From NCBI RefSeq assembly GCF_044324875.1, contig NZ_CP172185.1: a DNA stretch of 64,000 nt. One strand, given 5' to 3'. A program made the translations under genes and the position numbers. Positions 40,787 through 44,627 of this stretch are shown here, in pieces. This DNA is from Escherichia coli. Lineage in GTDB: Bacteria > Pseudomonadota > Gammaproteobacteria > Enterobacterales > Enterobacteriaceae. The notes under the pieces are model-generated. The model did no database searches. It was given only the letters and a program-made list of their open reading frames with translations, and was not told the DNA's origin. The first letter of the stretch is position 1, and each line of letters starts with the position of its first letter.

Positions 40787-41425
40787 ATGCCCGGGCGCTT
40801 TGAACTAAAACCAACCCTGGAGAAAGTCTGGCACGCGCCGGACAATTTTCGCTTCATGGACCCGCTGCCGCCGATGCATCGTCGGGGGATCATTATTGCC
40901 GCCATTGTATTGGTGGTCGGATTTCTGCTTCCATCTGATGATACGCCCAACGCGCCAGTGGTGACGCGTGAAGCGCAGTTAGATATTCAGTCGCAATCAC
41001 AACCGCCGACAGAAGAACAGCTGCGGGCGCAGCTAGTTACGCCACAAAATGATCCTGATCAGGTGGCCCCGGTCGCTCCAGAACCTATACAGGAAGGCCA
41101 GCCAGAAGAGCAGCCGCAAACTACCCAAACGCAACCATTCCAGCCAGATAGCGGAATTGATAATCAATGGCGCTCTTACCGTGTCGAACCCGGTAAAACG
41201 ATGGCGCAGCTGTTCCGCGACCACGGACTGCCCGCTACCGATGTCTATGCAATGGCGCAGGTAGAAGGCGCGGGTAAGCCGCTGAGTAATTTGCAAAACG
41301 GGCAGATGGTGAAAATCCGCCAGAACGCCAGCGGCGTGGTGACGGGCTTAACCATTGATACGGGGAATAATCAACAGGTCCTGTTTACCCGCCAGCCGGA
41401 TGGCAGTTTTATTCGTGCGCGGTAG
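40787..41425 (+). CDS. ytfB: OapA-domain cell-division protein YtfB
   Basis: 212-aa product [48 protein letters not shown]... (membrane anchor, Pro/Gln-rich linker, OapA C-terminus). Confidence 0.92.
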
Positions 41426-41499
41426 ATGAAGGGTCAACCAAAAGCCAGCTAAGGATTGTCTCTTTGATGACCTTACGTCTGGCTTCCAGTGCCTGAGGT

Positions 41500-41720
41500 G
41501 AAACCATACTGATATGTTGACATCCTCCACGCCCTGAAGGACGTGGATCCCTGCTACGTTCAGGCTGTCGCCTAAATCATTTCGGGGGGTTCCTGCTTCA
41601 ACGAGCGGCCTGACTGCACCATCTCTCCACAGGCAAGAACGGCGTGCCCCGCCGCTAAAATGTTACGAGCGCCATTTACATCGGCGTTCGCTGTATATCC
41701 ACATGCCTGGCATCTGAATT
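41500..41720 (-). ncRNA. Predicted omega (re)RNA of TnpB, overlapping tnpB 3' end and right end of the IS; putative guide = flank just beyond RE (about 41501-41516)
   Basis: Inference from established TnpB biology (guide RNA derived from tnpB 3' end/RE); presence of RE hairpin at 41527-41546. No transcript evidence. Confidence 0.35.
41527..41546. repeat. IS right-end subterminal hairpin
   Basis: 5-bp + 2-bp stem with single mismatch and TGAA tetraloop; near-identical copy at other end of element. Confidence 0.7.
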
Positions 41721-42768
41721 TACTTTGTGACAGGCGATTTTCTTTCGCTGTATGACCACAGCACGCGCAACGCTGGCTTGTGTACGCTGGCGGAACAGCA
41801 AGCACCTGACCGCCACGCCAGAGCTGCTTGTACTCAAGCTGGCGGCGCATTTCATACCAGCCCTGATCCAGTATCGAACGGTTTAAACCTGATTTTGCCC
41901 GGACATTGCGCCCCGGCTGGCTGACCGTACCCGCTGCTGACTTTGACATGTTGCTGACCTTCAAATCCTCAATGACTATCATTGCGTGGTTTTTGCTGAC
42001 GGTCGTTGTGACTTTGTGAAGGTAGTCCCTGCGGATATTTGCGATACAGGAATGCAGTCGCTGTATTTTGCGTTTCTGCTTCTGCCAGTTATTGCTGAAT
42101 TTGACCTTGCGGCTTAACTGTCGCTGAAGTCTCGCCAGCTTCTTCTGGTTTTTCTGAAAACTGTTTACAGGCTCAAAGACTGTGCCATCTGACAGCGTGG
42201 CGAGTTTAGCCACGCCAGCATCCAGCCCGACCATTGATGCTGAAGGGTGAACCGGAGTTGATACTTCATTTTCAGTCTGAATACTGATGTACCACTTACC
42301 GCAGGACTGGCTGACAGTGACATTTTTCACAACACCCGTGACCTGACGGCTATTCCGGTAGCGCATCCAGCCAAGTTTCGGCAGAAAAATACGGCTGTTT
42401 TCCTGATCGAGCTTAACGCCCTGCGGGTAGCGGAATGCATCATTCTGTCCCCGCTTTTTGAATCGGGGAAAAGCAGCCCGCTTCTGGAAGAAGTTTTTGT
42501 AAGCCCGCTCAAGGTCTTTCAGTGACTGTTGCAATGGCTGTGAGGGCGAATCTTTAAGCCATTGCGTTTCAGTGGCGTTTTTCCACTCAACCAGCCAGGA
42601 AGCCATTTTCCCGTAAGGGATGTATTTATTACCGGCCTCATGATTCTCATTCTGACGTGCCAGAGCACGATTGAAAACGAAACGACATGCGCCTGCGAAG
42701 CGCCTCATTTCACGCTCCTGTTGACCACCGGGTCTTAACTGGAATTTAAATGCCTGTAGTCGTTTCAC
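41572..42768 (-). CDS. tnpB: TnpB (IS605 OrfB) RNA-guided endonuclease, apparently intact
   Basis: 398-aa [39 protein letters not shown]...; RuvC-I D (MVGLDAGV), RuvC-II E (MIVIEDLKV), Zn finger CACCGH...CQACG and RuvC-III D ([10 protein letters not shown]) all present. Confidence 0.92.
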
Positions 42769-42775
42769 AGGCCAA

Positions 42776-43390
42776 ATGATACTTTGGTCTGTGAGAAAAG
42801 AAACCGATATCCGGCGTGGAAGGCATTGTGTTTTCCTGATGCATGTTCACCAGGTCTTTGTCACCAAATACCGACGTCAGATTTTTGACCATGACGCGAC
42901 AGAAAAACTACGCACTTACTTTTCAAATGTATGTGCTGATTTTGAAGCTGAACTGGTTGAAATGGATGGCGAACCAGATCACGTCCATTTGTTAATTAAC
43001 TATCCTCCCAAACTGGCGATATCCAGTCTGGTAAACAGCCTCAAAGGCGTATCGGGTAGGTTACTGCGACGAGATCGACCAGATATTGCAGTCAGGTATT
43101 ACTACAAAGGCGTTTTGTGGAGTCCTGGCTATTTTGCCAGTAGCTGCGGAGGTGCGCCAATATCCGTCATCCGCCAATACATTGAACAACAGCAAACACC
43201 TGATCAGGTGGAAAACCGCGCCTTATATCCCCGCCCTGAAGGACGGGGTTTTACGGCGCACCGGATAAACCAGGCCAAGCGTATGCTGGTTGATCAAATA
43301 ATATCCCCCAAGCGCAGCAATATTAATATTCACCTGCAATGGGTCGATATCTGGCTTAAAAATATTGTGTTTCCTCCCTTCATCCAATAA
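42776..43390 (+). CDS. tnpA: IS200-type Y1 (HuH) transposase TnpA, ORF reading through the IS left end into flanking DNA
   Basis: ORF contains KYRRQIF, HuH motif HVHLLI and catalytic-Tyr region [11 protein letters not shown]...QYIEQQ; typical TnpA ends soon after, but here no stop occurs until 43388-43390, beyond the end hairpin (which encodes [10 protein letters not shown]). Confidence 0.8.
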
Positions 43391-43483
43391 GGATTCCATT
43401 AACTGCAAGTGCGCATGATTAATTTCTAAGAGACACTGTGATTTTGCATAATGCACACCTTTACTTTGGTTTTCACTATGCAC
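43223..43483 (-). pseudogene. ytfA-like ORF, 3' end replaced by IS-end sequence (possible TetR-like C-terminal fragment)
   Basis: 86-codon frame from GTG 43481-43483 ([73 protein letters not shown]...) runs into the IS hairpin ([13 protein letters not shown]). Identity with K-12 ytfA is from position and memory only. Confidence 0.5.
43239..43258. repeat. IS left-end subterminal hairpin
   Basis: CCCCGCCCTGAAGGACGGGG, same architecture as 41527-41546. Confidence 0.7.
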
Positions 43484-43832
43484 AATTTTTAAAAACCAGG
43501 GATTAGCAATATAATAATCCCAGGTAAAATCGATGATTTTTTCAATGGCTTTTTGTGGCTGGTTAACCTGCTGATTAACAAACGCACCGATACCGACAGC
43601 GTAGAATAATTACATACCGCACAACAAGAATGTATGGTGTAAGGCGTTGTCAGTCATCTCCCTCCCTGGGTGCATCGTTATATCCGTGATGAGCGATTTT
43701 TGATATTAATATCTTTCACCATCCGCTATTTTCACTACTTCAGAAAACAAACTTATTTTTATTAATATCGATTCTTTTTCTTTGAGCATTTAACTACGAT
43801 ATTTATAAAAAAATTAAACAGGCAAAAATACA

Positions 43833-44627
43833 ATGACATTACCAACCACTATTTATTCATTTCCTGCATATTCACCCCGTTTTTCGTCCACCGACAAACC
43901 AGTAAAATTAAAATTTCATCAATACGCACGCGCTACATTACTTTCAAATCGTGGAAGAGATCATAATTGCGATGGCAGACATACTGTTGAGATCCACAAA
44001 CTAGATCTCTCAGACTGGCAAGCATTCAATAAACTAGCGATGGCGTGTAATGCTTACGATGGAATAACAATGAATGGTGATAATTCTTTTGGATGGAACC
44101 ATGAGGCTACATTAGATAATATTCACGCCCAGAAATACAATAAAGCTTACGCGGGTGCGAGGTTAACCGCAGAACTGAAATATTTATTGCAAGATGTCGA
44201 ATCCTTCGAACCCAACAGTAAATACACAATACACGAGGTTGTTTTGGGTCCAGGTTATGGTACTCCAGACTATACCGGCCAAACGATAGGATACGTTGTA
44301 ACCCTTCCTGCCCAAATGCCTAATTGCTGGTCATCTGAACTACCAACAATCGATCTTTATATCGACCAACTTCGCACTGTTACAGGCGTTTCTAATGCCC
44401 TCGGATTCATCATTGCTGCATTGCTAAACGCGTATTCTGATTTACCCCATGATTTGAAAATTGGTCTGCGTTCCTTATCAAGTTCAGCAGCAATCTACTC
44501 GGGTTTGGGTTTCGAGCGAGTGCCGCAGGACCGAGACATAAGGTGCGATCATATGCATCTAACGCCAGCAAACCATCCTGAATTATGGACACAAGAGAAT
44601 GGTGAATGGATCTACTTACGAAACTAA
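43833..44627 (+). CDS. yjfZ: Uncharacterized protein YjfZ
   Basis: 264-aa ORF MTLPTTIYSFPAYSPRFSSTDKPVKLKFHQYARATLLSNRGRDHNCDGRH...; AT-rich upstream region. Confidence 0.88.
   Translation: MTLPTTIYSFPAYSPRFSSTDKPVKLKFHQYARATLLSNRGRDHNCDGRHTVEIHKLDLSDWQAFNKLAMACNAYDGITMNGDNSFGWNHEATLDNIHAQKYNKAYAGARLTAELKYLLQDVESFEPNSKYTIHEVVLGPGYGTPDYTGQTIGYVVTLPAQMPNCWSSELPTIDLYIDQLRTVTGVSNALGFIIAALLNAYSDLPHDLKIGLRSLSSSAAIYSGLGFERVPQDRDIRCDHMHLTPANHPELWTQENGEWIYLRN

Follow-up and report, generated by a model that had tools for sequence, protein, structure and literature searches.

IS609 lies inside a ytfA remnant

The window, the whole 64,000-nucleotide stretch of E. coli DNA that was analysed, matches E. 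coli ECONIH1 at 100%, with the gene order fklB-ytfB-ytfA'-yjfZ-rplI. Within this neighbourhood a 1748-bp insertion sequence, IS609 of the IS200/IS605 family (41517..43264), separates two pieces of ytfA', both on the minus strand; the top strand of the element is likewise the window's minus strand. The 5' fragment of ytfA' (43265..43558) holds 98 codons, equivalent to TetR residues 83-180, and has no helix-turn-helix (HTH) domain; the 3' fragment (41409..41516) holds 35 codons and the stop codon (41409-41411), equivalent to residues 181-215 of the TetR protein of WB61, and supplies the last, C-terminal stretch of the TetR_C_29 domain. Beyond the 5' fragment, on the plus strand, lies a relic (43563..43668) derived from the 5' portion of a 3-ketoacyl-ACP reductase gene. 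No evidence contradicting this arrangement of element and genes was seen.

Empty sites, and TetR homology on either side of the element, bear out an earlier note's observation that an insertion sequence splits a ytfA-like reading frame. The split is real, ordinary and already known, both fragments being annotated in RefSeq: in the ECONIH1 record PGAP annotates insQ and tnpA, the latter flagged as a pseudogene, and labels the 3' flank fragment a TetR/AcrR pseudogene fragment, while the 5' flank fragment, a 'hypothetical protein' there, is labelled in other filled genomes as a further TetR/AcrR fragment. We are highly confident of the anatomy as a whole, that is, of a 1748-bp IS609 at 41517..43264 inside an E. 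coli ytfA pseudogene whose truncation is older than the element.

Ends, length and target of IS609

The ends of IS609 were defined from empty-site genomes and from five copies elsewhere. The HS-02 empty site reads ...CTGATATG|ATAAACC..., with a single mismatch to the window flanks in 1000 bases; its junction, GATATG|ATAAACC, has its equivalent in K-12 and WB61. The five copies, at loci that include yedK, ydcO, DUF3251 and yeaQ/R, have the sequence CCGGTGCG...GGATGTCAA in common, with TTAT before each and varying bases after. Each of the seven IS609 copies that we compared is 1748 bp long, at 97.9-98.5% identity to the window copy, and the tnpA at the same site in O157 is named 'IS609 family transposase' by PGAP. 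Placement of the element at 41516..43263 was considered and rejected: the left flank and the IS both finish in G, leaving a 1-nt ambiguity at the boundary, which is resolved because the base following ...GTCAA varies among the copies at other loci (C, C, T, T, G). IS609 terminates ...GGAGGATGTCAA at 41517.

Directly 5' of the left end is the target tetranucleotide TTAT (43265..43268, minus strand; ATAA on the plus strand), which is ytfA' DNA and not part of the IS. It occurs once in empty sites and abuts the left end in each of the five independent insertions; the filled site carries no duplicated base relative to the empty site, and a target-site duplication is therefore absent. Terminal inverted repeats are absent, as neither end, CCGGTGCG... 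or ...GATGTCAA, is an inverted repeat of the other. The earlier note had given the element as 41517..43277, 1761 bp and a multiple of three; its end at 41517 was right, but the other is 13 bases off. Bases 43265-43277 are found in empty sites and are therefore flank DNA, and the true length of 1748 bp leaves a remainder of 2 on division by three.

Genes and end structures of the element

The larger gene, tnpB/insQ (41572..42768, minus strand), encodes an RNA-guided endonuclease of 398 aa that matches NCBIfam NF040570 at 388.7 bits (cut-off 100) and the ISDra2 TnpB structures 8bf8/8exa at 190 bits (E = 3.7e-55); its C-terminus is 4 codons shorter than in other copies (398 versus 402 aa). On the plus strand, tnpA (42776..43390, of which 42776..43201 is the homologous part) encodes a Y1 HUH transposase that matches NCBIfam NF033573 over residues 13-138 (E = 3.4e-42, 143.7 bits, cut-off 55), matches IS200-type and ISHp608 TnpA in the PDB, and carries HVH and RQY motifs. 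Where the O157 copy has the native tnpA stop TAG, the window has CAG; the ORF therefore runs on through the left end, antisense to ytfA', to a length of 204 aa. Most IS609 copies have a damaged tnpA, with an internal stop, a lost native stop or both.

Both ends fold as single-stranded DNA on the minus strand. At the left end, a 71-nt segment folds at -15.9 kcal/mol (z = -2.5), with a subterminal hairpin whose core, CCCCGTCCTTCAGGGCGGGG, lies at 43229..43248 within an extended imperfect stem (43218..43259); at the right end, a 71-nt segment folds at -12.1 kcal/mol (z = -2.5), with a subterminal hairpin, CCACGTCCTTCAGGGCGTGG, at 41526..41547 that is kept in all copies. The element thus has the IS200/IS605 family features that were tested: a Y1 TnpA, a TnpB, subterminal hairpins on the same strand, and a target without duplication.

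The element next to ydcO in PD007, a K-12-like genome, is also 1748 bp long, is 98.3% identical to the window copy and has the same divergent tnpA/tnpB, ends, hairpins and TTAT target. The window copy differs from it in its site (ytfA), in a tnpB shorter by 4 codons, and in a tnpA that has lost its stop codon and has no internal stop, whereas the PD007 tnpA has an internal stop. The IS609 copy of K-12 is the insQ/tnpA pair adjoining ydcO.

Removal of IS609 restores the K-12 ytfA frame

Removing IS609 joins 43265 to 41516 and gives a 108-codon ORF that begins at GTG 43483 and ends at 41409, within 133 homologous codons; GTG 43481-43483 is the start of the older 108-codon ytfA ORF. The earlier note had expected precise excision to restore a continuous frame, and it does, though the frame is that of K-12 ytfA. 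IS609 cuts TetR_C_29, the ligand-binding/dimerisation domain, after codon 98 of 133, between a Tyr (TAT) and a His (CAT) codon, and the domain, split in the window, is continuous only after in silico removal of 41517..43264. The restored frame is identical to the intact WB61 TetR at 104 of 108 positions, free of gaps. A Pfam search of the restored protein matched positions 1-119 of the 119 of TetR_C_29 (E = 6.5e-30) and no other domain; a TetR_N helix-turn-helix is absent. An NCBIfam search with the 133-aa reconstructed fragment matched no family, because NCBIfam models depend on the missing HTH, and Pfam was needed instead.

The curated K-12 ytfA (b4205) is a 402-nt pseudogene, and 402 = 294 + 108, the lengths of the two fragments here. 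The joined flanks are 97.8% identical in nucleotides to K-12 ytfA across the reconstructed site, with the same fklB-ytfB-ytfA-yjfZ-rplI synteny and the same N-terminal truncation. The 3' ends of ytfA and ytfB converge and share 17 nt (41409..41425); the curated K-12 gene has the same overlap, and the earlier note had foreseen a convergent one for the restored frame. In position and truncated extent, ytfA' agrees with K-12 ytfA, of which it is the orthologue; the difference is that IS609 additionally interrupts it behind codon 98 of 133.

A false frame antisense to ytfB

The earlier note had proposed that excision of its 1761-bp element would restore a gene of about 124 codons ending at 41348. 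The two minus-strand ORFs on which this was built do exist, one of 86 aa with a GTG start (43223..43483) and one of 60 aa (41348..41530). The former does run from the flank into the IS end; its stop (43223-43225), described as lying inside the end hairpin, is 4 nt past the hairpin core and falls within the extended imperfect stem. The arithmetic was correct too, and the codon tracing holds in that a join of 43278 to 41516 is open for 124 codons, but the junction itself is wrong, being ruled out by the empty-site alignments, which read 43265|41516, and by absent homology. An empty-site junction different from the proposed one, or ends not a multiple of three apart, had been named in the note as evidence against its own reading, and the empty sites have both.

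At the true junction the frame differs and continues for 35 codons to the stop at 41409-41411, not for 55 residues. The proposed 55-codon tail (41348..41516) does not share the frame of the homologous continuation and is therefore a chance frame, not ytfA: in BLASTP against the WB61 TetR, the exact identity of the 124-codon reconstruction ends at its proposed junction, the tail is without homology, and the reconstruction matched no NCBIfam family. One part of the 60-aa ORF that supplied this tail runs antisense to ytfB, and the other lies within the right end of the IS. The open run of 55 codons had been thought unlikely to arise by chance, yet of the position/strand pairs across the window 24% have at least 55 open codons, as do 12% of positions in non-gene frames, and open runs antisense to ytfB reach 78-104 codons. 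We consider the 124-codon gene practically out of the question.

The useful outcome is thus a correction: the ends of IS609 are 41517 and 43264, its target is TTAT, and the interrupted frame is that of K-12 ytfA, not of a 124-codon protein. A general trap is seen here: if the ends of an element are picked so that a frame stays open, the resulting ORF may look convincing and yet be false, especially antisense to a real gene.

The truncation of ytfA is probably older than the insertion

The intact homologue in WB61 is a 215-aa protein with TetR_N (residues 19-61) and TetR_C_29, and a 3-ketoacyl-ACP reductase gene is divergent from it. In the window a 545-bp deletion, whose breakpoints we mapped, has taken away the 82 N-terminal codons of ytfA with the TetR_N HTH, its promoter region and also the beginning of the adjacent reductase gene. 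The reductase relic is the far side of this deletion (about 106 nt, 78% identical by blastn against L001). Because the same breakpoint is found in empty genomes (K-12, HS-02) and in filled ones, the truncation is a shared, older state.

In the opposite order, IS609 would have inactivated a functional, full-length TetR regulator, and the N-terminal deletion would have come later, in a gene already disrupted. Some E. coli, WB61 among them, do carry full-length 215-aa copies, and ytfA has been reported as limited to a subset of E. coli strains (PMC6790063), a patchy presence that would fit this order. However, a chimeric query found IS609 within full-length ytfA in 0 of 5426 complete genomes, and the breakpoint is common to empty K-12 and HS-02 and to filled genomes; inactivation by the element is accordingly very improbable. 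The remnant was probably already non-functional as a regulator before IS609 arrived, an order that is the parsimonious one from complete genomes only. The earlier note was right that the IS sits in a pre-existing gene, ytfA, but this was not a working one, its HTH domain and promoter having been lost before. As the remnant already had no DNA-binding domain or promoter, no function was lost by the insertion, and its biological weight is very small.

Filled and empty sites in the population

Among 5426 complete genomes, IS609 occupies the ytfA site in 1699 (31%), and the site is empty in 3282. Single-strand 'peel and paste' transposition would account for the TTAT 5' of the element, the lack of a duplication and the subterminal hairpins; family knowledge suggests such a single-stranded DNA mechanism with the top strand, here the ytfA sense strand, on the lagging-strand template. 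Seamless excision would then join 43265 to 41516 and give exactly the K-12-type ytfA (b4205).

The filled fraction could reflect repeated independent insertion, or TnpB-guided homing at TTAT, together with precise excisions, rather than one old insertion; this would concern the history only and leave the anatomy unchanged. The HS-02 empty site, on a flank haplotype with 1 mismatch in 1000 to the filled window, would fit such recurrence, as would a SNP at 41514, either allele of which is found in filled as well as empty states. Three same-site IS copies differ mutually at 30-37 positions and from copies at other loci at 27-31, with no clustering by site; the distance matrix of the seven copies is star-like and mosaic, and does not separate a single insertion from multiple ones. 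Against recurrence, same-site IS copies have diverged (1.7-2.1%) about as far as their flanks (1.6-3.4%), the pattern to be expected if an old insertion diverged along with its flanks and was shuffled by homologous recombination; most copies have a damaged tnpA; and IS609 made zero moves in K-12 mutation-accumulation lines (PMC5009759). We regard recurrent insertion as possible but rather unlikely.

A putative guide RNA and relation to known elements

The 3' end of tnpB and the right end of the element may encode a TnpB omega-RNA (reRNA; 41497..41690, minus strand). The RNA fold of this region has z = -2.5, and a search for a curated omega-RNA family in Rfam gave sub-threshold matches only (minus strand, 41504..41687: HgcC, 25.2 bits, E = 0.0039; RAGATH-18, 29.5 bits; sot0042, 18.1 bits; all below the gathering score). 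By analogy with the family, its guide would be the ytfA' flank from 41516 downwards (CATATCAGTATGGTTTCACC), and TnpB with an omega-RNA reading into this flank might recognise the TTAT-flanked empty site. A literature search on the TAM of IS609 or TnpB activity at the element yielded nothing beyond routine mobile-element listings and a paper mentioning IS609 TnpB as a candidate that had been purified (PMC12781874), and we found no activity data for IS609 transposition.

The filled/empty polymorphism between ECONIH1 and HS-02, whose haplotypes are almost the same here, might reflect homing or retention of the element: ongoing seamless excision by TnpA, combined with omega-RNA-guided cutting by TnpB at the empty site TTAT-CATATCAGTATGG. 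We regard this as a rather improbable account of the polymorphism; were it true, the ytfA locus would offer a natural setting in E. coli for the study of TnpB-driven IS maintenance.

With ISHp608 and ISDra2, the window element shares homologous Y1 HUH TnpA and TnpB proteins, subterminal hairpins and duplication-free insertion 3' of a tetra- or pentanucleotide. It differs from both in that tnpA and tnpB are divergent in IS609 and co-oriented in ISHp608 and ISDra2, and in its TTAT target, those of ISHp608 and ISDra2 being TTAC and TTGAT, respectively. The right end of ISHp608 finishes in TCAA, as does that of the window IS609.

IS609 interrupts a recoverable ytfA frame

The genome of HS-02 (NZ_CP172818), an empty-site strain, differs from the window at 1 of 1,000 flank bases (41017-41516 plus 43265-43764) and carries the junction ...GAAACCATACTGATATG|ATAAACCAGGCC...; K-12 and WB61, the latter a strain with an intact ytfA homologue, share this junction apart from a G/A SNP at 41514. 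Because of these three empty-site junctions, we place the limits of IS609 at 41517..43264, a length of 1748 bp (1748 mod 3 = 2). Taken on its own, the empty-site alignment leaves the boundary ambiguous by one base; this was settled by the IS609 copies at yedK, ydcO, a DUF3251 gene and yeaQ/yeaR, each of which reads, in the window's minus-strand sense, TTAT|CCGGTGCGCC...GGAGGATGTCAA|N, the base past the right end (the 41517 side) being variable. The length is exactly 1748 bp in each of the seven copies compared.

Removing 41517..43264 in silico lets the frame that starts at GTG 43483 continue to a stop at 41409-41411: 108 codons when read from that GTG, with homology from 43558 onward covering 133. 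Over the 108 codons, the alignment to residues 108-215 of WB61's intact TetR/AcrR protein (215 aa) is gap-free with 104/108 identical, and the restored frame matches Pfam TetR_C_29 (PF17938) over positions 1-119 of 119 (E = 6.5e-30). It is the curated K-12 pseudogene ytfA (b4205; 402 nt, with a 17-nt overlap with ytfB).

An earlier note had proposed that an IS at 41517..43277 splits a ytfA-like gene of about 124 codons, an intuition that was right at its centre and wrong in the specific reconstruction. Both minus-strand ORFs it cited are present among the ORF calls and its right end is correct, but empty sites and other-locus copies put its other end 13 nt too far out. The join of 43278 to 41516 is indeed open for 124 codons, but depends on those assumed limits: in the resulting protein, identity to intact TetR ends exactly at the junction, and no family is matched. 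The 55-codon tail is the +1 frame past the junction; 26 of its codons (41348..41425), about half, run antisense to ytfB, and open runs antisense to that gene reach 78-104 codons. The argument that such a tail is unlikely by chance fails because an open run of 55 codons or more follows 12% of the codon positions that lie in frames outside the window's long ORFs.

The split is already visible in public annotation

E. coli ECONIH1 (NZ_CP009859) is 100% identical to window 40900-44000, and the locus order is fklB, ytfB (40787..41425, plus strand), TetR/AcrR fragment, insQ/tnpB, tnpA, second fragment, yjfZ (43833..44627, plus strand) and rplI. In the ECONIH1 record, PGAP annotates 41409..41516 (minus strand) as a TetR/AcrR family transcriptional regulator with 'missing N-terminus' and 43223..43510 (minus strand) as a 95-aa 'hypothetical protein', WP_230278486.1. 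The latter, in frame with an 86-aa ORF of the earlier note, consists of the 5' ytfA fragment extended into the left end of the IS (the 43264 side) and is an artefact that the insertion has introduced into the annotation; in other genomes with the same insertion, PGAP calls both flanks TetR/AcrR fragments. Element and pseudogene are both known, and RefSeq already annotates the arrangement. ytfA is a TetR-family gene present in only some E. coli (PMC6790063), and that of K-12 is regarded as a pseudogene (bioRxiv 10.64898/2025.12.20.695731).

ytfA was probably truncated before IS609 arrived

The intact WB61 gene encodes TetR_N (residues 19-61) as well as TetR_C_29 and is divergent from a 3-ketoacyl-ACP reductase gene. 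Window homology to WB61 ends at 43559 and restarts at 43563 (WB61 position 2958), marking a 545-bp deletion that took codons 1-82 together with the promoter region between the two genes and the beginning of the reductase gene. Comparison with WB61 also locates a relic of the 5' part of the reductase gene at 43563..43668 (~106 nt, 78% identical), making the ytfA-yjfZ interval a scar left by the decay of a regulator/operon pair. The same ytfA truncation is found in empty-site genomes (K-12, HS-02) and in filled ones, and a chimeric query of IS left end, ytfA and N-terminal region, for which a match had to cover all three parts, found none in 5426 genomes. The parsimonious order is therefore truncation first and IS609 second, a pseudogene being what the IS hit.

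Distribution and history of the insertion

The IS occupies the ytfA site in 1699 of 5426 complete E. coli genomes, O157:H7 among them, and the site is uninterrupted in 3282; roughly a third of sequenced E. coli have IS609 in ytfA. Split flanks in genomes such as O104:H4, O145:H28 and O55:H7 are consistent with an occupied site. No IS609 transposition was seen in K-12 mutation-accumulation lines (PMC5009759).

In a comparison of seven IS609 copies, among them 41517-43264, same-site pairs showed 30-37 differences and same-site copies showed 27-31 to copies at other loci, so there is no same-site cluster. At 41514, each SNP allele is found with the IS present as well as with the site empty. These two observations fit an old insertion that recombination has reshuffled, and also occasional precise excision or re-insertion. 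The HS-02 empty site, on a near-identical haplotype (1/1000), points to a seamless excision or an insertion, either of them recent, or else to an allele swapped in by recombination. The three ytfA copies resemble one another no more than they resemble the yedK, ydcO, DUF3251 and yeaQ/R copies, and variants are shared in a mosaic pattern, suggesting that recombination or gene conversion has acted among IS609 copies.

Genes and ends of IS609

tnpA begins at 42776 (plus strand) and matches an IS200/IS605 transposase model over residues 13-138, as well as solved Y1 transposases. Its native stop, which the O157:H7 same-site copy retains as TAG, reads CAG in the window; therefore, over 43198-43390 (plus strand), the ORF runs past the left-end hairpin into flanking DNA and reaches 204 aa. 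PGAP flags tnpA as a pseudogene; the window tnpA has no internal stop. Most of the other E. coli IS609 copies examined also have CAG at this position, and a TGA at codon 96 is found in three other-locus copies (yedK; ydcO in the K-12-like PD007; DUF3251) and in same-site RIVM_C039205.

The minus strand has a subterminal hairpin at either end of the element. TTAT targeting, absence of a duplication and hairpins together mark the single-strand 'peel and paste' transposition known in the IS200/IS605 family from ISHp608 and ISDra2, a signature that IS609 at ytfA appears to bear. The ytfA sense strand is the IS top strand and the K-12 plus strand at 4.43 Mb; given the known position of oriC, this top strand presumably lies on the lagging-strand template, which the IS200/IS605 family prefers.

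tnpB (insQ; 41572..42768, minus strand) scores 388.7 bits against the NCBIfam TnpB model and 190 bits against ISDra2 TnpB structures. Sub-threshold Rfam matches to HgcC (RF00062), RAGATH-18 (RF03064) and sot0042 (RF02656), RNA families linked to IS605-type tnpB 3' ends, lie at 41504..41687 (minus strand), over the tnpB 3' end and the right end; as a lead, they suggest the usual TnpB omega-RNA, for which the ytfA flank CATATCAGTATGG... would serve as guide. The window TnpB has 398 residues and ends in PPEMI (41560-41575, minus strand), and six other IS609 copies encode 402 residues ending in PTEMIQATA, a change that falls where the putative omega-RNA scaffold would also be encoded.
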